NCBI GenBank assembly: GCA_004563595.2
Contig: CP042461.1
Span: forward strand, 780,001-812,000
Source: Candidatus Saccharimonadota bacterium
Lineage (GTDB): Bacteria > Patescibacteriota > Gracilibacteria > BD1-5 > UBA6164
Length of the DNA stretch: 32,000 nt
Direction of reading: 5' to 3'
In this document: in pieces, positions 5,913-30,517 of the stretch
How the letters are laid out: each line of letters opens with the position of its first letter
How positions within the stretch are numbered: the first letter of the stretch is position 1
Position numbers and translations under genes: made by a program
Notes under the pieces: model-generated
Told to the model about the DNA's origin: nothing
The model's input: the letters and a program-made list of their open reading frames with translations, nothing else
Database searches by the model: none

Positions 5913-6205
5913 ATGAAACTTTTTGCTGTGGAAACTGTGGAAAGGAAATAGAAATACATCCAGAATGATCAGCTAGAAATCATTGTCCTTATTGTTTATA
6001 TTCAAAGCATCTTGATAAAGATTTTCCAGGAGATAGGAAATCTGATTGTGAATGATTAATGAGTCCTGTTGATATTGATTACAAAAAAAACAAATGAAAT
6101 ATGATCAAGCATAGATGTATGAAGTGCTGAAAAGAAATCCTCAATAAAGTTGCTCCTGATGATGAGTTCTTAGAATTCGTTAAAAAAAGAAACAAAACTG
6201 TATAG
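5906..6205 (+). CDS. RNHCP-domain zinc-ribbon protein (99 aa)
   Basis: MINETFCCGNCGKEIEIHPEGSARNHCPYCLYSKH...HRCMKCGKEI contains the literal RNHCP motif plus CxxC pairs. The start overlaps the upstream gene by 7 nt. Confidence 0.75.
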
Positions 6206-6221
6206 TTTTGTTTCTTTTTTT
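6182..6221. terminator. bidirectional rho-independent terminator
   Basis: aaaaaaAGAAACAAAACtgtataGTTTTGTTTCTttttttt: an 11-bp stem with an A-tract and a T-tract, placed between convergent stops at 6205 (+) and 6220 (-). Confidence 0.6.
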
Positions 6222-6885
6222 AATCTAAGATTTCAAGAGCTTTCTTACTTACAATATATGCATTTGGAGCAATATTTTTTGTATCGGGTAAGTCATCAAT
6301 TACATACCAGTTTCAAGCAATAGTGTTTTCATCTCAAGTAGCTGACAAAATTCATTCATATTTTTTTACTATGAAATGCATCAGACACACTAACTTATAA
6401 TATACCTCTCCGTCTTCTTTATTTTCTATTAATGCCCAATCTACAAGGGGTTTTTCATTGTATTCTTCGATAATTGTAACTCAAGTTCTATTTTTTGTCC
6501 TTATTCTTGCATTAGCTCTTACTTTTTCAAGATCGAACTTAAATGCTCAACTTTCTTGTATGATAACTTCTTTGTTTTCATCCTCTAGAGGACTTCATCA
6601 TGTAAATTGATGCTGTACTTTTCAATTTTTGTCAGTTGTAACTAAAAAAACCTCTTTTTTTGTATTATCTATGAAAACATGTCCGGAGGAATATACTCTG
6701 ACTACTTCTTTTCAATTATAAGTTTCTTTATTTATAACTTTTTCAAGCATTATTTCTGAAATATTTCAAGTCAGGTCCTTAAATCAGGCTTTACTCATTC
6801 ATTCATCAGTTTTTCTGACAGTGCAAAAGTTTATTCATTCACAAAATTCTCACTCTGGTGCTTTTGGTAGGTATGATTTTTCCAT
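6220..6885 (-). CDS. hypothetical protein (221 aa), last gene of the SUKH-MazG operon
   Basis: Open ATG..TAA frame under table 25 (MEKSYLPKAPEGEFCEG...SKKALEILD). A weak Nudix-like stretch FTGGSPLEDEN is present, but the catalytic REUxEE part is missing, so no family is called. Confidence 0.6.
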
Positions 6886-6912
6886 TATTTTTATTAATAT
6901 CTAATATAATAT

Positions 6913-7248
6913 TTATTTTAATTTTTCATTATTTTTATGCCTCTGACTATCTCGCTTTGTTTTTTTTTCAAGATTTTTTTGTAAAGCACTTGTTAAATCT
7001 ACTCATGTTTGGTTTGCAATACAGATAAGTACAAACAATACATCTGCTAACTCATCTCAGAGATCACCTTTTTCATCTGATTTTTTAAAGCTTTGCTCTC
7101 AATATGTCCTTGTAATTATGCGAGCTACTTCACCAACCTCTTCTATGAGCTGTCAAAGATTTGTAAGCTCAGAAAAATAACGGACTCAAATAGTCTTAAT
7201 CCAGTTATCAACGATTTCTTGTGACTCTTTGATTGTAAGTTCGTTCAT
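6913..7248 (-). CDS. MazG-like nucleoside triphosphate pyrophosphohydrolase (111 aa)
   Basis: Small all-alpha MazG/YpjD pattern: WIKTIGVRYFSELTNLGQLIEEVGEVARII...DLGDELADVLFVLICIANQTGVDL, carrying the EExGE and ExxD metal-ligand motifs. Confidence 0.75.
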
Positions 7249-7279
7249 TTTTTCACCTCATCTAAAAAATAATATTTAA

Positions 7280-7684
7280 TTAGCTCAGTTCACCTAAAAA
7301 TTCTTCTAATGAATCAGCCCGTTTACTAAGCCCTGCAGAGTGACTCCACATATAAACTGGGTAACTTTCTTCATCTTGTTTCACAGCAAAAAACTCTTCA
7401 GAATCAGAGCGAGAAGCATCCATCAATATTTCTTCCTGTTCATCATTAGTAGTAGAATATACTGCTAATGGAATATATCCCTCTGGCCAACCTTTAGATC
7501 AGATCCAGTCCATGAAATGAGGACCATTCAAGATTTGTGGAGCAATCACTTTTACAGCAGAAAAATCGAGTCATATTTGCAAAAAACTATCTTTATGAAT
7601 TTTTCCAGAATATTCCTCAGTTTTACATTCTACTAGTTTTTCCAATAACTCATTGTCTGCTTTCATATTAATTGTAATTCCCAT
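7280..7684 (-). CDS. SMI1/KNR4 (SUKH-1)-like protein (134 aa)
   Basis: SUKH-like pattern: ...GWPEGYIPLAVYSTTNDEQEEILMDASRSDSEEFFAVKQDEESYPVYMWSHSAGLSKRADSLEEFLGEL. This has the IP-A motif, an acidic loop, a late aromatic-W-H segment and a terminal F-EFL. The call rests on pattern only. Confidence 0.55.
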
Positions 7685-7785
7685 TTTATTAATTGATTAG
7701 TGAATAAACCATTCGTAAAAATTTTATTGCTTTCCTTGTTAAAGTCAATAGAGTCATACTAATAAACTTTTAAAAAGCATAAAAA

Positions 7786-9095: not shown

Positions 9096-10565
9096 TTATC
9101 AGGCTTTTTTATCATCTAAAACTGAGATGAGTTGATTTAAATATTTTTTTGATAAATCAGCTTCAATTGATTTCATTGTTTTAGGTCCAAAAACTCAGGC
9201 TCCCATATCATCAGTGTGTTGTATAATTTCTTTATCTAATTGATAGTCAATTAGACTTGTTTTTGTAATGTCTCAAAATATTGCTGTATCTTTATTATCA
9301 AAATATCATAATTCTTTTAATGTTTTTTGTAACTCTCTTACTCCAGGTGATACTTCTCCAAATTTTGGAGATCAAAGAGATACTAATTTATCTTTTGCTT
9401 TTTTCTCTGAGAGATCCTCTAGTTCTTTAAATTTCTTTTCCAATTCTTGTTTTCTTTCCTCTTCCTCAAATTTCTTTTTTTCAATTTCTAAATAATTACC
9501 ATATTTCTTCTGTAAAACAGCTCTCGTTTTTGGTCCGTAACTTCATGCTCCTGGAGTATACTCACTTACTACAATCCCTTCTGAAATTTGGAAATCATAT
9601 ATCGTACTTACAAGATCTTTATAATTTCATGTAAGTTTTCATTCATATATTCATAATTTTATTAAAACTTCTTGTAAAAGTTTAATATCTTCTTTTTTTG
9701 TAACGTTTCACTGTAATATATTTTTATATTTATCAGTATTTTCTAATACTGTTCATTTATCATGATTCTTATTTTCTACAAATTTATCTCACTCTACTAT
9801 GTCATATTCTCAATTTAAATACTTTTTTAGAAATAATGCTCTTGTGTTCCCTCCCCAATAACCAGCTCAATTGTAGGTTCATTTTTTAATGAGTTTGTTT
9901 TCTATTTGAAAATCATAAATAAAATCAATTAAATCCGAACTATATATTCCGTTCATTTCACCAGTATATACTCAAATAGATATAAGGAATTTTTTCAAAT
10001 TATTTACCAGTTTTTGATCACTATCTTTCCCTATTCATGTATTAAATATATTTGGGATTTTTTTAAAATTTTTAGTTACCCATGTAGGAGCAGATATATT
10101 ATTATAATCAAGCGTTGTTTGTGTATTTTGTTTTACTATATTTCATTTCACAGTCCTTTTTCCCCAATATAATGCTCTTCTTAATCCTTCATCTCCATAC
10201 CCTACCCAAACATCTATCCTATCATAACTATAGCCTCTATTTCAAGCATTTACAATCGCTCATCACCTATCCTCTATTACTCATACTCATAATCACTCTA
10301 AATGAATCTTCGTTCAAAATTTATAATTTTTTGGTCAAGCAAGCATTCATGAAAAAACTTTTTTTCATGATGCTCATGCAATTCATTTTCAATTAAGCCT
10401 CATCTCACTTTTATAATCTCAAGTCAGGTAATAGTTTTGATCTGGAAGAGGAGAATAATATGCAGTTACAACAAAATATCCAGCATTACTATTAGAAAAA
10501 GCTGTATATGGGTACAAAAAAGATACCATTGAAACGGATAATATAAAGGCTAAGATTTTCCTCAT
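9096..10565 (-). CDS. secreted 3D-domain (MltA/RlpA-like fold) protein with three peptidoglycan-binding repeats and a charged coiled-coil linker (489 aa)
   Basis: Signal peptide MRKILAFILSVSMVSFLYPYTAFS. The 3D domain reads YFVVTAYYSPLPDQ...GKGIAGASGKKVF...GVIEDRGGAIVNAGNRGYSYDRIDVWVGYGDEGLRRALYWGKR. PG_binding_1-like repeats follow (GVYTGEMNGIYSSDLIDFIYDFQ; GIYEGKLTGNYKDLVSTIYDFQ; GYFDNKDTAIFGDITKTSLIDYQ), with an E/K-rich stretch between repeats 2 and 3. Confidence 0.8.
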
Positions 10566-10610
10566 AAATATTTTCTTAAAGGTATTAATATATGAGTAAT
10601 TTTAGCATAT

Positions 10611-10681: not shown

Positions 10682-11935
10682 TTAAAGTATTAATTTTAAA
10701 AATTTTAGTTGTTGTTTTTTCTTTTTAGATCCAGATTTATCAATGACTTTTTCCAATTTTTTCCTGAAAGAAGATTTGATTTTATATTTCTTTAAATTAT
10801 TTCATCCTGATAGAGTATCAATATATGAAAGTATTTTATATTTCACTTTTTTTAACTTGAGTATTTCCCTTCTTGTAAGTTTTGTATAATCCTTTAAATA
10901 TTCAACCTCTGCAAATATTCAAGATCAAAACTGAGTATGCAAAGTATCTAATGTTTTCACTCAAAAATATCATGCTTCTTCACTTATCCTACTTTCTATG
11001 ATATGGTTTTTTATCTGAAAATCTATGAGTTCATCTTTTATACTGTTATAATCTCCATCAATATCTTTATTATACAGTTTAATTTCAGTAAATAAGGATT
11101 GTAATTTTTTAATATCATCCTTTTTACTCTCAGCATTTACTCTCAATTTATTATATTTTGTAACTGGTGACTCATCAAATCCTACAGTAGGTAATTGCTC
11201 ATCTTCAACTATTCTTCATTTCACTTTTCTTTTTCACCATTTCAAAGCTCTTCTGAGTCATTCATCTCAATATCACATCCATATATCGATTCTATCATGC
11301 TCAAATCATCTCTCTCAAGCATTTACAATTGCTCACCCTCTATCTTCAACACTTCATATTCAAATTCATTCTAGTTCAATTTTAGTCCCATACTTATAAT
11401 TTCTTGGGGCTGCGAAAAGTCCCACGAAAACAGGTTTTCATGAAGCAGTAATTTTTCAATTTCAATTCAACCTTTTATCTCAGGCGTATGTTCAAGTAGT
11501 ATATCTTTTTTGTCATGGAAGCGGTGAATAATATGCAGTTACATAAAAGTATCTCTCATTACTTTCAGGCTCATCAACTTTCAAGGTGTTCAAATTATCC
11601 TTAAATCTATCTCAAAATTCTTTTTCAAGAGCAGTAAGGGTTTTCTTTCAAAAAAATCATGCTCACCAATCATCGCTATATTTTACTATTCATGCTGTCA
11701 TTTGATAATCAATGAGAGATTTTTCTATACTTGAATATTTTCCATCAATATTTCAATTATATAAATCTAAACTTTTAAAGAATATTTGAAGTTTTGTTAT
11801 TTTTACGATATTAGACTCCGCAGATATATTTGATTCTATACCAGAAAAAGAACTAGATGCCGAGACACCTAGAACTCCAAAAAAGAAAAATATGATTGAT
11901 ACGAGTATAAGAACTATACTCTGGAATGGTTTCAT
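10682..11935 (-). CDS. secreted/anchored 3D-domain protein, paralog with permuted domain order (417 aa)
   Basis: Hydrophobic N-terminus MKPFQSIVLILVSIIFFFFGVLGVSA. A PG-binding repeat comes first (LYNGNIDGKYSSIEKSLIDYQ...GFFGKKT). The 3D domain follows: YFYVTAYYSPLPGQ...GNGKITASGKPVF...GSVEDRGGAIVNAGERGFEHDRIDIWMGYGDEGLRRALKWGKR. A second PG-binding repeat and a K-rich tail complete it. The track ORF 11753..11935 is only the N-terminal fragment. Confidence 0.8.
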
Positions 11936-11998
11936 AATATTATTTACGAATAATGATTGCGAAACAATTATATGAAAATATTGAATAAAGCAAGTTTA

Positions 11999-21780: not shown

Positions 21781-21809
21781 AAAAAAGAGATATACGAATC
21801 TCTTTTTTT
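21781..21809. terminator. hairpin terminator after the PTD-repeat gene
   Basis: aaaaAAGAGATatacgaATCTCTTttttt lies immediately downstream (minus sense) of the stop at 21808-21810. Confidence 0.55.
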
Positions 21810-23025
21810 AATTTTCTAAACAAATCGTAAATGCCCAAAAATAATTATAAACTGGATCAGTTGTTTTATATGCAACAGCTCCAATCTTAACACCAGCTAC
21901 ATTAAATACTTTATAGTAATCTCCTCAACTTGTTTCATTTGAAATAAATAAGTTCCAAGTCGCTTCTGGGAGTTCTAAAGTAGTAATACTCGAGATATTT
22001 GAATAGATTTTGAATTCATTAAAACCTATTGGACAAGCTTGGATAGTTGGGAAAATAGGGCTTCTCATAGAATCTACTACTACTTTTAATTGTTTTCATC
22101 AACTTACGTATGCAGTATTATTGAAATAACCTAGTGGATCTGTTGGGTCCGTTGGGTCCGTTGGATCCGTTGGATCTGTTGGGTCCGTTGGGTCCGTTGG
22201 GTCCGTTGGGTCCGTTGGGTCCGTTGGGTCCGTTGGGTCCGTTGGGTCCGTTGGGTCCGTTGGATCTGTTGGGTCCGTTGGATCTGTTGGGTCTGTTGGA
22301 TCTGTTGGGTCCGTTGGATCTGTTGGGTCCGTTGGATCTGTTGGGTCCGTTGGATCTGTTGGGTCCGTTGGATCTGTTGGGTCCGTTGGATCTGTTGGGT
22401 CCGTTGGATCTGTTGGGTCCGTTGGATCTGTTGGGTCCGTTGGATCTGTTGGGTCCGTTGGATCTGTTGGGTCCGTTGGATCTGTTGGGTCCGTTGGAGT
22501 TACTATAACTGGAGTTGTTGTTTCTTGTAGTGGTTCTTCTTCTGTTATGATTTCAGTTTCTTTTACTACTTCCTCTACAATATCAGTTGAATCTTCGATA
22601 ATATCTGTTTTTCACTTTTCTGTCACTGTGGAACTATCAGGTTCTGTTGATCAATTAGTATTTTGACTAGAAGAGCTTCATTTGTTAGATGTACTTGTAG
22701 AGTTTGTATTTTCTGATCACTCAGAAGTATTTGATTGATCAGGTGCAGATGCATAAGGAACCTCTTCATTAATTCACTCTCATTCAGAAGCTTGAGTAGA
22801 AGTTTCATTTGAAGTTCACTCTGGTCATTCAGATGAAGTATCAGTTTCTTCCTGTTGATCCGGACTTGAAACCTCAATTACTATTAATTTCTCACTTTCC
22901 TGAAAAGAAGGAATAAATGCAAATACTACTCATCAACTTATAAGCACTCAAACAAAACCCAAAAGTACGATCGTTTTATGATATTCAAAAAATATCATAA
23001 AGTCATTTATCCAATCATTTAACAT
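21808..23025 (-). CDS. membrane-anchored surface protein with (Pro-Thr-Asp)x40 repeat linker (405 aa)
   Basis: N-terminal TM segment (TIVLLGFVGVLISGGVVFAFI), about 130 aa of S/T/E/N-rich acidic low complexity, 120 aa of uninterrupted PTD repeats, then a C-terminal domain of about 108 aa (PLGYFNNTAYVSGGKQLKVVVDS...YNYFWAFTICLEN). The track + strand ORF 22134..22508 is the antisense shadow of the repeat. Confidence 0.75.
22135..22494 (-). repeat. 40 tandem 9-bp units (coding sense ACGGACCCA / ACAGATCCA)
   Basis: I counted 40 in-phase units directly. There are 9 consecutive ACGGACCCA units (22180-22260) and 11 perfect 18-bp alternating pairs (22297-22494). Two hybrid units sit at 22162 and 22288. 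All differences are synonymous third-position changes. The repeat is a GC-rich island in AT-rich DNA. Confidence 0.95.
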
Positions 23026-23087
23026 AAATTTAATTTTTTATTTTCTATAAACTATGTAAAAGGATATCATACTTATATATATATAGC

Positions 23088-24691: not shown

Positions 24692-26374
24692 TTATTTCCT
24701 AATATTCATTTTTAATTGTTCAGCAATATGCTTTTTTTCAAGTAAATGTGGGCTATTCACTCATGAAATTGATGCTACTTGAATTAATCATTTATTATGA
24801 GCTTTCACAAAATTCCCAATTTGTTCTATTTTTTTATCCCAAGTTTGTTTGTATGCTCTTCTATTTTTCTTTTTCATAGTTGCAAGCCCTACAGGACAAT
24901 CTCAATATTCACCTGAACATAAACCAGCTCTAATACACCCTCATGCAATCATTATAGACCTTGCATTTCAAATTGCATCTGCTCAAAGAGCAAGAGCCTT
25001 CGCTGACATAAATGGAGAATAGAGTTTTGCAGATGCAAATACTCTTACCTTATCTCTTACATTATATTCATTGAGAGTTTCAATAGCTATCTGAAGAGCT
25101 TCATATATTTTCTTTCAAAATAATGTAGAAAGGTAAATTGGAGCTGCTCATGACCCACCATCCCCTCAATCAATAGTAATAAAATCTGGTGCTATTTCTG
25201 GATAATCTGCAATTGCTTTTGCGAGTGGTTTAATGTTTGATTTATCTGATATAACTATCTTCATTCACACAGGCTTTCCTCATGCTTTTTCAGAAAGATG
25301 ATCAATAAACTCAAAGAACTCTTTTTCTCATCATTTATTATAAAAGGGGAATCTATTTGGAGATATCAGATCATGTCCTGGCTCTACTCACCTAATTGCA
25401 GCTACCGTTGGATTATTTTTTACAGCTTTTAGTACTCAACCACTTTGTTTTGCTCATTGAGCAAGTTTAATTTCAACCCCTCTACAAAATGACATAATTT
25501 TCTGAAACCTATCCCAATTAAATTCTAAACTTCCATCTGTAGTATGTTTTTTAAGTCCATAGAGTCACGAACCTATTTGTAAAATAACTTGTCAGAAATC
25601 ATCTGTCATATCTTCTACTTTTGGAAAAGCACTTAATGGTGCTGACCAATCAATGGTATAAAATACAAACGAGTCTTTGCAAAATAAATATAAATCAGTT
25701 TTATCTTTTTCTAATAATTGTTTCGCAAATATATCAACGATATGATTTTTTAACCTTGCTCAAGGTGTTAACTTGTAGAGTATTTTTCAAATTTTAGGAA
25801 GTCTAACATATTTAAAATATTTTTTATCTTCACTGAATGGAATCCTTGGAACATGTTGAATCGCAAATCCTCATTCTCCTGTATTGAATGGTGCTTTTGT
25901 GTCAGCACAAGCTGCAGCCATTGCAGAAGTTGCCTCAAAACTAAGAGCTCACAGACTCATCGCACTTCTATATATATATGAACCAAATTGAAATGGGTGT
26001 TTTCTTTTTTCTCATACAATTGGAAATTTTACATCCATTTCATCTGCATTTAATGGAGTTGAAGAGTGAATCATATCATATTGACCATTATGAAGTGTTC
26101 CACTCGAATCAAATTTATCAAATCAAAAATATCCAGTTTTCCCACTTGATACCTTTAAAATCCAATCAATTACAACTCTATTTACAAAATCATTATCATC
26201 CAAAAAATATTGCCTTATAAAAGGTCTTATTTCATGGCCTAAGTATCTGAATCTCCCAATAAGTGGAAAGTTTGCAAGTACTAAATTTTTTGTCTGAAAA
26301 AATCTATCATATATTGCTACACATAATAACAAAGCAATGATAAATCAGATAATTCCTAGAAATATATATAACAT
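24692..26374 (-). CDS. membrane-anchored FMN-binding glutamate-synthase-family oxidoreductase (GltB domain-2 homolog, 560 aa)
   Basis: N-terminal TM segment MLYIFLGIIGFIIALLLCVAIY, then NFPLIGRFRYLGHEIRPFIRQYF. FMN-domain motifs are AMSLGALSFEA, KLAQGAKQSGGVL, DLISPNRFP and ITIDGGDGGSGAAP. The C-terminal stretch is GGCIRAGLCSGEYGDCPVGLATM. The track ORF 26123..26332 is a fragment. Confidence 0.85.
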
Positions 26375-26412: not shown

Positions 26413-27576
26413 TTATGTTTGTGAACTTCAAAGGGGTTTATACAAAATAAATAATAATGATATTGGTGCTAAGATATAGTATACATACATTAAAGATATT
26501 TCAATACTCCATTTTGTATTATAAAAGATCAAAGCCAAAACTCAAAATATAAAAAATATAAAGAATTGAGAATAATAACTTTTCATCATCATATAACTGT
26601 GGGTATCTACACTTTTTGCCGTATGAAAGAATTGTTTATTAAAAACCAGACGGAAAAACGAAGTGCAAAATGCAATAACCAGAACCAGTAGATAGATAAC
26701 ATAATTATCTTCTAAATTACCTACATATCATCTAAATATCCAGGAAAAGGCATATAATATCACCGCAACATAAAGAAGTTGTTGTCATTGTACCTTATCT
26801 ATTTTTTTCTTTATTCATATAAAAATTACTGAAAAAACAATAGCTAACACAACCACCAAAATTCATAACTTATGATAACTTTGTCCAGTAATTAAAAATA
26901 ATGACAATAACCAAAAAAAACTTTCAAAAAATAAAAATGGTCCGTCTAGCATAAATATATACTTAGACCTTAATCTATCCTTAAAAAGGAATACTTTTTT
27001 GAGAGAAACTGGTGATGCTTGAGAAAATTCTTCCAAATTTTTCACCAATTTCTTATGACTTACAAAGTAATATACCCCGTATGCAGATAACAAGATTGAA
27101 ACTACTAATACATAATCATAGTGATTATTCCCTAAAAGATATGATCAAAGCAAAATCCCTATTTTTACAAGGACAAATGCAATAATTTGAATATTTCAAA
27201 ATTTATCTCATACTTCATGTTTCTCTGTACTCGAAACAAAAAGAACTCTTTTTGTAAGCCAAAAAAAACAATTATATACTCAATATATAATTGAAAATAA
27301 AAATAAAAAAAGGAAATTTTTATCAAGTGTTCAAACACATAATATTCAGATCTCAAGAAAAAAAGAGATGACAATCAGGATTCTTATACCACCTTTGTAT
27401 CTGATTCTATCCCATACAAGCATTGATATAACAAAACTCAGTCACGTAAGTGATATAAAATATGAAATCTCCGAAAGAGAAAATCAATTTTTATATAGAA
27501 ATACTGGAATAAAAAATATGAATAATCATGTTAATATAGAATGGAGTCACAAAAAGTTGTATAATATTTTTTTCAT
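26413..27576 (-). CDS. MFS-type transporter (387 aa)
   Basis: I read it codon by codon, and the frame stays open under table 25 from ATG 27576 to TAA 26413. There are about 10-12 hydrophobic segments. An MFS motif-A-like loop MLVWDRIRYKGGIRILIV (G-x-x-x-D-R-x-G-R/K type) follows TM2. The track ORFs 26863..27093 (in frame) and 27165..27374 (off frame) are a fragment and a shadow respectively. Confidence 0.75.
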
Positions 27577-27607: not shown

Positions 27608-29365
27608 TTAATATATCCCTCTTCACGTAATATCAAGAGCATCAAGTTTCTCATATAATGGTTTCATATCTGGTTTTTCTCAATATCTTGGATAATTATG
27701 CATTTCAAGATATGGTCTCGAGTTTACTTCTAGGAATATACATTCTTGCTTATCAAAATCTACATCAATTCCCTTTTCCATAATGACATCTATACCAAAT
27801 ACATTCGCTCCAAACGCATCAAGAATTTTAAAAAATATTTCTTTATTTTTTTCAGTGATAGTTTCTACTCCAACTGTTTCGAGTACTCCTCCTGGAGCTA
27901 AAGAAACTCTATGATACATTGTTAATTTCTTCCCTTTTTCTAATATACTATCAAAGTGATAGCCAAATTGTTTCATATGATTTTTTACTCTGCTTCACTT
28001 TTCAATAGTATGAATAACAGGAATTAAATTCATTTTTTCTCTCTCCTTATTTTCTTCATCAATAAGTCTAGAAACTGTTTTTTTTCCATCTCAGATTACA
28101 AAACCGGGGTATCTTTCCATAACTATATCAACCGATCACTTTGTTACTACAACTCTATAATTTTTTCATAATAAATATTGCTCTATAACACTTGATGGCC
28201 ACCAAAGTTTTACAAAAAACATAGCTTTCCAAAAATCTTTATAATTCGTGATTGGAAAGAAGCTCCCGCGCGAGTATCCTCATACGTTTGGTTTTAAAAC
28301 TACAGGAAATCAATGCTGTTGTACAAATTTATAAGCTGTATAGGGATTATAAAATATACTTCCCTTTGCATGAGGAACATCATATTTTTGAAACATCTCT
28401 CTTGCTTGTTTCTTTGATCTACATAATTTTCTCACTTCTAGTGAATTATAATCAGAGCATCCATGTAAAAACTTATCTTCTATAAATTTATATATTAATT
28501 TTTTAATTTTCATAAAGGACTTATTATTATTTAATTTAATTTTATAATGAGTAAATATTTTTCTAAAAAATATAGATTTGTTATTTTCCTTTGGTATATG
28601 TGAAGTCAAAAGAGCTAAACTTTTCGTAAATTTTTTTAGAAACTTGTTCTTTTCAATTTGTAAAATATTCTTATCAAGAAGATGCAAAGGAAATGGAATA
28701 AAAATATTTATTTCAAATATTTCAAATATTCAATCTTTTAAATCCTGAAGACTATGAGATTTTATTCATACCCTCGCTATGTTAAAGTCTCATATTTCTT
28801 TCATGTATCATCTAAATCTTTCTTTCTGAGTCTCACTCCATTTATCTGATATATCATGATATGTCGTATTACAATAAATTCCATTTATAGGATATTTTGA
28901 AGCTTCACTTGGTTTTGCTTCAACCATGCTTTGAAGAGTAATCATATGAGGTTGAATAGGATCCCTTGTATATAATACCTCATATTCATTCTGATATTGA
29001 GAAGTTTCTTGATATATATATGATATATTATCTTTTTTAATTTGCTTTAAACGCCTCACTAATTCTTTTTCAGTCTCTACTACGAATATTCCATGAGAAT
29101 TTTGTCCCCATTCGGGTTTAAAAAAAACAGGAAGTGACATTCTTGATAAAATTTTATTTTTTTGATCTGTTATAGACAAATTACTTTCTATGATATAACT
29201 CTGTAATTTCCACTTATCTGGAATATTATCCTCTATCTCACATTTTGAGTAAATACCTTTTTCATCATTAAAATACTTTGCATTCAACTGAAAAAACCTC
29301 CATGGTCTTGTTTTGATAACCGTGCAGGAATAAATATAGTACAAAATTATTTTTAATCTGAGCAT
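27608..29365 (-). CDS. fused double ATP-grasp ligase (585 aa); C-terminal module is cyanophycin-synthetase-G-domain-like
   Basis: One continuous table-25 frame joins track ORFs 28808..29365, 28310..28687 and 27680..27976. Module 1 (about aa 1-240) has LPVFFKPEWGQNSHGIFVV and FEIFEINIFIPFP (E-x-N). A K/N-rich linker follows. Module 2 (about aa 310-585) has AREMFQKYDVPHAKG, GFPVVLKPNVGGYSRGS, VIEQYLLGKNYRVVVTKGSVDIVMERYPGFVIGDGKKTVSRLIDEEN, LAPGGVLE and CIFLEVNSRPYLEMH (E-x-N). Confidence 0.8.
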
Positions 29366-29383: not shown

Positions 29384-29911
29384 TTATTTTTTACTTGCTT
29401 CAAAAGCAATTGTTGATGCAGCTTTTCATATATTAGAATTCTCTACATTAATTCAATTGGCTTTAAGAATACGTACCATAGTATCTAAATGATGAGTTTT
29501 ATGTTGAAAATGTGCATATAATATTTCACTTTGATAATTTGTTACTATGTGCACTTTTTTTCAGCTAGGAATAGTATCTATCTTGGTAACATTTTTGGTA
29601 AGGTCAATTTTTTTATATTTAAGCGTGTCAATTATCTGAAAAATCTCGATTTTAAAATCCCTAAAACTCGTTTCTAATAAGCTATCTCTTGTCCTTGTTC
29701 ATGGATAATCAATAATACCTGGCTCTCCATTATATTCTGCTTTTATATATCAATTTATGACAGTATTCATATGATCAACAACATGCCTAACATGTTTTCA
29801 TATTAATTCGTACGATGAATCTGATAAATCATTTAAATAGGATATCTCCTGAAAAATATTCTCTGACTCTATTATTACATCTTCATTTGTTAATGTATTT
29901 TCTTCACTCAT
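29384..29911 (-). CDS. DinB/YfiT-like four-helix-bundle protein (175 aa)
   Basis: The spacing of the His clusters is typical of the DinB_2 superfamily: HVRHVVDHMN near the N-terminus and HFQHKTHHLDTM near the C-terminus. It ends 18 nt before the ATP-grasp ATG. Confidence 0.65.
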
Positions 29912-29983
29912 TGAAACTCAACTCTCTATTCACATAGATTATAAAACTTATATATATATTGTTACTCTTCCTTTTTATACAAC

Positions 29984-30517
29984 CTACATTTTTTTTCAAA
30001 ATCACATTACTTCAATTATTTTCTTAATCATTGTAAAAAGATTCTTGAAATGAGTTACAAATAAGGCAAGTCACAATCCCCAGATTGAGACTGCTGCTCT
30101 AAATAAACTTCCTCCATCATTATTTACTTCTACACCAAGAGGAGTAAATAAATGAAAAAATATAGCTCATGACATGATCATTACTGCTCACAAACCTCAC
30201 AGAGCAAATAGATATTCTGGAACCATCTTTGCCTTGAATAATCATAGTAATTTAGCTATATACATAAGTACAGGAATGATGAGTAATATTGATATAATTA
30301 ACTCTCCTGTTCATATCAGATATGCTCAGTAATTAGTAAATCAATTTCAAATAGTCTCTCAAAAAGTCATACTCATCCACTCTCATATAGTTCAAAAAAT
30401 GTGTTGAGTTTCTGGATCATCAGTAAACTTAAACGTGAGTGAAATCAAAAAGACATATGATATCCAAATAGAGACCAACGAAGTTACCGTTTTTTTAATT
30501 ATAGAACATGTTTTCAT
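29984..30517 (-). CDS. DoxX-like small membrane protein (177 aa)
   Basis: Four hydrophobic segments with the G-ELI pattern (YLIGTGELIISILLIIP; GGLGAVMIMSGAIFFHL). The frame ATG..TAG is open under table 25. The family call is tentative. Confidence 0.5.

Follow-up and report, generated by a model that had tools for sequence, protein, structure and literature searches.

A predicted two-module ATP-grasp ligase in a TGA-recoded Gracilibacteria genome joins an unannotated ATP-grasp family to a relative of the cyanophycin synthetase G domain

The window analyzed here is a 32,000-nucleotide stretch of the Gracilibacteria genome deposited as Candidatus Saccharimonadota bacterium (contig CP042461.1, positions 780,001 to 812,000), and the gene under study lies near its right-hand end at 27608-29365 on the minus strand. 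The gene encodes one 585-residue polypeptide that consists of two ATP-grasp modules. The N module represents a new ATP-grasp branch that has no annotation so far, and the C module is a stand-alone relative of the G domain of cyanophycin synthetase (CphA). Most other bacteria carry the two parts as neighboring but separate genes, which here became fused end to end. The protein is probably a bifunctional amide or peptide ligase that would use two ATP-dependent steps to make a small amide-linked metabolite.

The open reading frame (ORF) runs through 585 sense codons to a TAA stop without interruption, which requires that TGA be read as a sense codon. The initial annotation of this DNA had joined three shorter ORFs into one polypeptide across TGA codons at 28808 and 28310. 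The single frame is correct and both TGAs are in frame, but these are not the sole ones: there are 12 in all (residues 186, 192, 200, 212, 352, 362, 400, 410, 425, 457, 562, and 581). Translation with table 11 splits the gene into many fragments, of which the three ORFs are the longest, and the peptides quoted in that annotation already had the remaining TGAs read as glycine. TAA and TAG are absent from all 585 codons despite a GC content of 27%. At least 15 full-length homologs (576-596 residues, 45-98% identity) have the same continuous two-part layout, and the fused frame recurs in seven independent assemblies of recoded relatives (L001-L006 and L008; the junctions were read in all fetched loci).

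The reading of TGA as glycine (code 25) was compared with its reading as tryptophan (code 4) using alignments to CphA1 and the columns of standard-code orthologs. HMMER alignments place the TGAs at residues 352, 362, 400, 410, 425, and 562 opposite glycine in solved CphA1. Among 60-71 standard-code orthologs, the 12 TGA columns hold glycine in 514 of 808 cells and tryptophan in none, and four of the columns are invariant glycine. These alignments support TGA as glycine in this gene, and the genome paper of this organism likewise used code 25 (PMC6851277). The long ORFs throughout the window are all full of in-frame TGA, which indicates that the genome is recoded and the gene is not a local oddity; window GC content is 25-33% except in one repeat gene. 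ARAGORN located no tRNA or tmRNA genes in the 32-kb window, hence tRNA-Gly(UCA) lends no support there.

Three gene models exist for the locus, one of them the 585-residue code-25 model (the public entries are QFR39780.1, P0001, and P0171). The GenBank model, QFR39780.1, is a 301-residue 'cyanophycin synthetase' that starts at M285 and holds the C half only. The ENA/JGI model uses code 4 with tryptophan at TGA, is 559 residues long, and starts 26 codons downstream of M1; P0001 is the same protein under code 4 (559 residues, 98% identical, with the differences at glycine/tryptophan positions). Residues 1-26 are conserved in the fused homologs and in stand-alone N proteins, and the ATG at 29365 (M1) is therefore the likely start. 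This segment may form an amphipathic or membrane-proximal helix. The 585-residue code-25 model is the supported one among the gene models at this locus.

The C half covers approximately residues 186-489 of TeCphA1, which is the G domain and nothing else. The TeCphA1 G domain spans residues 162-487 and its functional residues are defined by experiment (PMC9427784). The cyanophycin synthetase model TIGR02068 is matched at positions 210-460 of 862 only (E = 5e-43), with 147 bits versus a cutoff of 850. The closest solved relatives are CphA1 (7wac, E = 1.6e-24), CphA2 (7ta5, 8fxh), and GshAB (3ln6), and weaker matches are to the ATP-grasp part of bifunctional GshAB and to N-acetylglutaminylglutamine synthetase. 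The ATP-grasp models matched above cutoff are RimK (PF08443, 26.6 bits, cutoff 21) and CPSase_L_D2 (22.2 bits, cutoff 19.8). Pfam gives no Mur_ligase match in the window protein, and the chain ends at the G/M boundary. The likeness to the G domain and the absence of the Mur-ligase M domain, both proposed in the initial annotation, are confirmed by these searches.

Residues of TeCphA1 taken from PMC9427784 were mapped onto the C module by HMMER alignment and checked in 80 C-type sequences from several phyla. TeCphA1 K261, R309, R323, D431, E450, and N452 are kept as K358, R404, R418, D526, E546, and N548. All six are invariant in the 80 C halves, as are K318, R366, and G367, and the previously noted motifs KPNVGGYSRGS and LEVNSR are both present. 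G425 of the lid motif is TGA-encoded in the window and is an invariant glycine in the orthologs. The conserved residues place the C module in the ATP-grasp superfamily with its catalytic core kept.

The N module is confidently predicted to have an ATP-grasp fold. Structure prediction used P0001 as input, the same protein under code 4 with tryptophan at the TGA positions. The AlphaFold2 (AF2) model of the N half alone, calculated with a 46-sequence alignment, has a predicted local distance difference test score (pLDDT) of 93.9 and a predicted TM-score (pTM) of 0.90. The top 50 Foldseek matches in the PDB are all ATP-grasp proteins (RimK, ArgX, Ddl, VanG, carbamoyl phosphate synthetase (CPS), PurK, biotin carboxylase, and synapsin) with probability 1.00 and TMq up to 0.60. 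The N half thus models as the divergent ATP-grasp that had been suspected from its motifs KPEWGQNSHG and FEINIF, which are present in the verified frame. Its Pfam and NCBIfam ATP-grasp matches in the window protein are all sub-threshold and lie around K-P-E-W-G-Q-N-S-H-G. Dala_Dala_lig_C is matched at E ≤ 0.1 by 11 of the 15 N halves scanned, and its 24-bit cutoff is exceeded by the N half of P0003 (26.0 bits) and the stand-alone protein P0026 (26.8 bits). A search of 1.84 billion representative proteins with the N-half profile retrieved 641 relatives, 60 of them with E < 1e-30. Many are stand-alone proteins of approximately 260-300 residues that span the whole profile, including proteins of standard-code, higher-GC organisms. 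RefSeq labels the N-type protein 'hypothetical protein', and there is no specific Pfam or NCBIfam model for the family.

The N-half profile was aligned to Escherichia coli DdlB using what we take to be its sequence and numbering (K144, E180, E187, R255, D257, E270, N272). The alignment pairs K83 with K144, Q119/E127 with E180/E187, R198 with R255, and E218/N220 with E270/N272. K41, K83, Q119, E127, R198, E218, and N220 are invariant in 69 N halves; the invariance of residues 83-89 (K83-P-E-W-G-Q-N) is partly forced because the loci were found with that pattern. We also considered internal duplication as the origin of the two halves and discarded it, since in hhalign the N and C profiles match over only 31 columns at the K-P loop (E = 0.003).

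Residues ~226-283 form two long, confidently modeled helices that correspond to the C-terminal end of stand-alone N proteins, and residues 284-316 correspond to the conserved N-terminus of stand-alone C proteins with its invariant G-C-S-x-Y-N motif. Because the helices close the N proteins and residues 284-316 open the C proteins, the junction lies at approximately residues 283/284 and is essentially zero-length. The K/N-rich linker of about 70 residues described in the initial annotation does not hold up, since its residues belong to the N and C modules.

Relatives were located by scanning GTDB species representatives with one peptide pattern; the census draws on the best 80 of 301 loci, and locus counts are given over 87 loci. 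The N-type gene occurs in ~300 species representatives, mostly marine bacteria. The carriers belong to the Gracilibacteria, Peribacteria, Desulfobulbia and other Desulfobacterota, SAR324, Myxococcota, and many marine Gammaproteobacteria (Endozoicomonas, Amphritea, Neptunomonas, Colwellia, Psychromonas, Sedimenticola, and SUP05/Ruthia/Bathymodiolus symbionts). In 82 of 87 loci N is followed immediately by C in the same orientation, and the stop codon of N usually overlaps the start codon of C. Two of the remaining five have little or no sequence downstream of N (L015, L055), and three have N only (L024, L049, L054). Split versions in relatives, which the initial annotation proposed to look for, are therefore the common form, with N and C as separate adjacent genes in most organisms. 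An example is L007 (44% GC, standard code), where a 288-residue N gene overlaps a 303-residue C gene by 7 nt. The L007 C protein is 55% identical to window residues 286-579 and is followed by a major facilitator superfamily (MFS) transporter 33% identical to that of the window, and the same small membrane protein and a pyridoxal phosphate (PLP)-dependent decarboxylase are in the vicinity.

The fusion is limited to TGA-recoded Gracilibacteria and one gammaproteobacterium, L085, as established by reading through the junctions. The L085 fusion (6001-7782; Granulosicoccaceae metagenome-assembled genome (MAG), 62% GC, standard code) is 593 residues long and has a His/Ala-rich junction of ~45 residues that is unrelated in sequence; it looks as if it came from read-through or a frameshift at the end of the N gene. 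The two independent fusions argue for a physical and functional partnership between N and C. Other Gracilibacteria are split (L011 and L083, the latter with the stop/start overlap ATGATAA). L066, a candidate fusion under code 25, was rejected; it comes from a standard-code organism and its N gene ends in TGA.

Table 1. Positions of the fused ligase, its modules and motifs, and the neighboring genes in the 32-kb window
Feature	Position	Strand	Remarks
Fused two-module ATP-grasp ligase	27608..29365	-	complete 585-codon ORF plus TAA stop, code 25
N module, residues 1-283	28517..29365	-	divergent ATP-grasp, unannotated family; two long C-terminal helices; no pre-ATP-grasp domain
Conserved hydrophobic/basic N-terminal segment, residues 1-26	29288..29365	-	from conservation and hydropathy; omitted from the public 559-residue model
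N-module strand and phosphate loop, K83-PEWGQNSHG	29090..29119	-	K83 = DdlB K144
N-module Mg-binding motif, E218-I-N220	28706..28714	-	= DdlB E270/N272; upstream R198 = R255
C module, residues 284-585 plus stop	27608..28516	-	stand-alone equivalent of the CphA1 G domain (~TeCphA1 186-489), including the Glid insert
C-module P-loop, K358-PNVGGYSRGS	28262..28294	-	Y364 in place of CphA-specific His267; Tyr/Phe type as in GshF
C-module lid motif, V-I-G-D-G-K-K, residues 423-429	28079..28099	-	common to CphA, GshF, and Ngg-type ATP-grasps
C-module Mg ligands, D526, E546, N548	27722..27790	-	= TeCphA1 D431, E450, N452
MFS transporter	26413..27576	-	starts 31 nt downstream of the ligase; directly after C in 56/87 loci
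Membrane-anchored Glu_synthase (flavin mononucleotide) domain protein	24692..26374	-	7/87 loci, mainly Gracilibacteria
183-residue DinB-like gene	29384..29935	-	stop 18 nt upstream of the ligase start
Small ~4-TM (transmembrane) membrane protein	29984..30517	-	commonest upstream partner, 55/87 loci

The genes around the ligase are, in order, a small membrane protein, a DinB-like protein, the fused ligase, an MFS transporter, and a Glu_synthase-domain protein (Table 1). These genes share the minus strand and are closely spaced, an arrangement that looks like an operon. It matches the cassette of the split genes, with the small membrane protein upstream of N+C, a transporter downstream, and the same order in relatives. 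A DedA/VTT protein takes the MFS slot after C in 17 of 87 loci. A PLP-dependent group II decarboxylase lies upstream of N in 34 of 87 loci; NCBIfam has no equivalog for it, and its top matches (the DABA and aspartate decarboxylase models) are far below cutoffs. A cysteine dioxygenase-like cupin is found at 4 of 87 loci, in SAR324 and a Gracilibacterium. Homologs of the window's 183-residue gene occur at 6 of 87 loci including the window's own contig; in five gammaproteobacterial loci its orthologs follow the MFS gene, and they match PF05163/PF12867 of the DinB family. A DoxX label for the small membrane protein is unconfirmed: it has no Pfam match, its likeness to DoxX_2 is transitive only, and only a paralog comes close, with 25.5 bits versus a cutoff of 26.3.

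Several relatives show variations on this cassette. Symbionts of the SUP05/Ruthia/Thiodubiliella/Bathymodiolus group (L018, L051, L053, L058, L061, L073, L080, L084), with chromosomes of ~1.2-2.0 Mb where complete, have a fixed cassette of small membrane protein, PLP decarboxylase, N, C, and DedA/VTT; L018 is without a decarboxylase match and L080 has only a short decarboxylase fragment. P0153, a 537-residue JGI metagenome protein, carries a DedA/VTT membrane domain at its N-terminus, fused to a distant N-like ATP-grasp that has a V-T-G-D-G insert in its lid; this echoes the DedA/VTT gene that replaces MFS after C in 17 loci. Two SAR324 MAGs (L049 5460-6951 and L054 5454-6894) carry N alone directly after a cysteine dioxygenase-like cupin and downstream of a sigma-54-type regulator. 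The L054 MAG also carries a complete decarboxylase-N-C locus (L013), which indicates that N-type genes have paralogous uses. The Gracilibacteria relative L003 (777-5064, 10427-11325) has, around its ligase gene, a class V aminotransferase, a cysteine dioxygenase, a DUF2721 protein, and a PLP decarboxylase, with MsrA and MsrB downstream; this is a sulfur amino acid/oxidative-stress neighborhood, unlike that of the window.

ATP-grasp enzymes bind Mg-ATP and activate a carboxylate as an acyl-phosphate, which is attacked by an amine. The explanation we favor, with moderate confidence, is that the window protein is a bifunctional ligase of this kind. Each module would bind Mg-ATP and form the acyl-phosphate of its substrate carboxylate for attack by an amine, and the two ligations would yield a small peptide-like metabolite of the rough form X-Y-Z. 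The PLP decarboxylase that adjoins the pair in many relatives, sometimes with a cysteine dioxygenase, probably provides a decarboxylated amino-acid amine as a building block, and membrane passage of the product or of a precursor is probably the task of the MFS transporter, replaced in other lineages by a DedA-type protein. Two ligations toward one small metabolite are suggested by the adjacency of two distinct modules, their two independent fusions, the transporter after C, and the decarboxylase that often adjoins them. We infer that both modules are active and work in sequence toward a single product, and likewise what the transporter does and what kind of product is made; the architecture and the conservation of the gene pair point to the sequential order of the ligations. 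Each characterized relative of the C module (CphA1 G domain, GshF ATP-grasp, and Ngg) joins an amino acid onto a C-terminal carboxylate (PMC9427784).

Several observations weigh against the bifunctional ligase. The full-length AF2 model has a good N half, but its pTM is 0.46, the pLDDT of the C half is mostly < 70, and it gives no reliable inter-module geometry. The lysine, glutamate, and asparagine that the initial annotation proposed to check are present in both halves, but the position of the DdlB Mg ligand D257 is occupied in the N half by G200, a TGA codon, and is never acidic in 69 N sequences. The canonical N-terminal pre-ATP-grasp domain is missing from both modules, so substrate binding must be organized differently. 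The N gene stands without C at some loci of SAR324 and Desulfocapsaceae, which shows that N is not strictly dependent on C. There is no decarboxylase or cysteine dioxygenase gene near the ligase in the window. The single search pattern and the restriction of the census to the best 80 of 301 loci also count on this side.

The missing D257-type ligand and pre-ATP-grasp domain could mean that the C module alone is catalytic and that the N module is an ATP-grasp-derived pseudoenzyme, acting as a scaffold, substrate-binding subunit, or regulator that replaces the CphA N domain. Its placement N-terminal to a G-like module resembles that of the N domain in CphA, and its sequence is far from known families with no above-threshold Pfam or NCBIfam match. 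This account is rather unlikely. The seven residues that are invariant across phyla, K41 through N220, form the kind of pattern that selection on an active site would be expected to leave and a scaffold would not, N-type genes also occur without C adjoining a cysteine dioxygenase-like gene in SAR324, and the distant relatives of the N module are ordinary-looking ATP-grasps with lid inserts.

RimK, CphA1, and CphA2 are among the nearest relatives in fold and sequence, which raises the alternative of a processive polymerase or tailing pair like RimK or CphA2 that would extend a peptide, protein, or envelope/lipid acceptor at the membrane by many residues and would not yield a discrete molecule of tripeptide type. 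The constant partners of the pair are all membrane proteins, with MFS and DedA/VTT alternating in one slot, P0153 joins a distant N-like ATP-grasp directly to a DedA domain, and the N-terminus of the N module is conserved and hydrophobic. This alternative has a low probability because the cassette has no conserved acceptor-protein or carrier gene at the 87 loci, the co-located PLP decarboxylase, cysteine dioxygenase, and MFS transporter are more typical of small-molecule pathways, and the CphA primer-binding residues are not conserved.

The best family and PDB matches of the C half are to CphA1 and CphA2, GenBank gives QFR39780.1 the name 'cyanophycin synthetase', and the organism is stated to convert amino acids to cyanophycin (PMC6851277). 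All of this would fit an enzyme that synthesizes cyanophycin, or a minimal form of it whose storage polymer is cyanophycin-like or poly-Asp. The TeCphA1 recognition residues are replaced family-wide in the 80 C sequences. The P-loop H267 is Y/F364 in 80 of 80, a Tyr/Phe-type P-loop that is ascribed to GshF (PMC9427784). The primer-binding E215 is K/R313, an equivalence extrapolated four residues ahead of the HMMER-aligned block, and the Asp-binding N394 is S/A488. G456 is Y/F552, and R458 corresponds to residue 554, which is mostly lysine and is glutamate in the window protein. R323 (R418) alone is retained of the primer- and Asp-binding residues and the P-loop histidine. The window protein has neither the Arg-adding M domain nor the CphA N domain, the TIGR02068 score is far short of its cutoff, the C module is paired obligately with another type of ATP-grasp, and the cassette has transporters and a decarboxylase but not cyanophycinase. 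With both domains absent and the recognition residues replaced, the protein is very unlikely to be a cyanophycin synthetase, and the published statement that this organism makes cyanophycin is probably an over-annotation. Least credible is an artifact in which an assembly error, a frameshift error, or misreading of TGA merged two separate genes, as the GenBank model of the C half alone and the separate genes of most organisms might suggest, because the 585 codons are open at 27% GC, the column-by-column alignments back TGA as glycine, the split relative L083 closes its N gene with TAA so that true stops are visible where present, and recurrence of the fused frame in at least 15 homologs and seven independent assemblies effectively excludes it.

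The product of the N+C pair and its cassette could be a small peptide that contains sulfur and has so far escaped description, for instance a thiol of low molecular weight or a conjugate of the hypotaurine/beta-alanine type. Its users would be sulfur-cycling marine bacteria, reduced-genome chemosynthetic symbionts (SUP05, Ruthia, Bathymodiolus), and Gracilibacteria. This is an attractive guess because cysteine dioxygenase, DinB-like proteins, MsrA/B, the GshF-type P-loop, and sulfur-cycling marine hosts recur, though it is tentative and the odds are against it. The fused Gracilibacteria protein would then be a GshF-like bifunctional synthetase that arose convergently from two ATP-grasp modules.

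These results amend both the database entry and the metabolic conclusion drawn in print from the 'cyanophycin synthetase' in the first Gracilibacteria genome to be closed: the protein lacks the defining parts of that enzyme, and the gene gives no support to cyanophycin storage by its host. They also define an unannotated ATP-grasp family, the N type, that is partnered with a stand-alone ligase similar to the CphA G domain. Among the ~300 species representatives that carry the pair are several marine bacteria in culture, where genetic tests would be feasible, and the retention of the cassette in symbiont genomes of ~1.2-2.0 Mb suggests a physiologically important, undescribed metabolite. The fusion is a single-chain form of a two-enzyme pathway and is handy for biochemistry and structural work. 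No paper on the N+C pair or its cassette was found in the literature searched, outside which most subscription papers fell; the sole link to published work is the cyanophycin statement in PMC6851277, which the present results do not bear out.

Two other regions of the window have distinctive features. A 410-codon ORF at 21808-23037 (minus strand) contains a long run of Pro-Thr-Asp (PTD) tripeptide repeats and accounts for the one GC spike seen (0.42 at 22001-23000); it resembles the hypervariable gene that PMC6851277 describes in this organism under the name 'PTD tripeptide repeat'. The adjacent genes at 9096-10601 and 10682-11995 (minus strand) encode paralogous secreted proteins that share the core 'YYSPLP...RLNG.GI...DRGGAI', as judged by eye from the translations. 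By the same inspection the core looks 3D/MltA-like and is accompanied by repeated peptidoglycan-binding-like segments.

Known systems share some features with the fused ligase. In CphA1 (N-G-M; 7wac, 7lg5), the G domain is homologous to the C module in its core and its V-x-G-D/N-G lid motif. The fused protein differs from CphA1 in that it is without the M and CphA N domains, has its recognition residues H267, E215, N394, G456, and R458 replaced, precedes the C module with a second, unrelated ATP-grasp, and has a different genomic context. CphA2 (7ta5, 8fxh), which uses the G-domain active site only, is a top Foldseek and sequence match; it polymerizes beta-Asp-Arg dipeptides and has retained the CphA N domain together with a shortened M domain, parts that are absent here. 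RimK, LysX/ArgX, and D-Ala-D-Ala ligase are the nearest folds to the N module (Foldseek probability 1.00, TMq 0.45-0.60) and give its only Pfam matches, which are weak. The identity to them is 11-17%, and the N module differs by having neither the pre-ATP-grasp domain nor the D257-type Mg ligand. Distinctive of it are the invariant K-P-E-W-G-Q-N loop and two helices that extend its C-terminus.

The CPS large subunit likewise carries two ATP-grasp modules on one chain that act sequentially. The CPS halves are internal duplicates with carboxyphosphate/carbamate chemistry, whereas the halves here share the K-P loop motif only (hhalign E = 0.003) and come from two separate genes. Ngg makes a dipeptide osmolyte, which fits the mostly marine distribution of the N+C pair. 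The ATP-grasp module of Ngg (TIGR03103) and the C module are relatives (E = 3e-18 to 7e-22), but Ngg is fused to a GNAT acetyltransferase and not to a second ATP-grasp, and its partner is an AsnO-type amidotransferase that is not in the N+C cassette. A parallel in proposed logic, two sequential ATP-dependent ligations on one chain, is GshF/GshAB (3ln6, 3ln7; NF002688). The C-terminal ATP-grasp of GshF is homologous to the C module (E = 1e-26, NF002688 positions 491-741 of 756) and has a P-loop Tyr/Phe like Y/F364. The first module of GshF is a gamma-glutamylcysteine ligase of the GshA fold, whereas here it is an ATP-grasp of a new family; a family-model scan gave no gamma-glutamylcysteine ligase match in the N half, NF002688 was matched over its ATP-grasp part only, and nothing indicates glutathione as the product. 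By analogy, the fused protein can be likened to a GshF-type bifunctional ligase, but it is outside that family because it has no GshA domain. The class of chemistry is familiar; the family pair and its fusion are uncharacterized.

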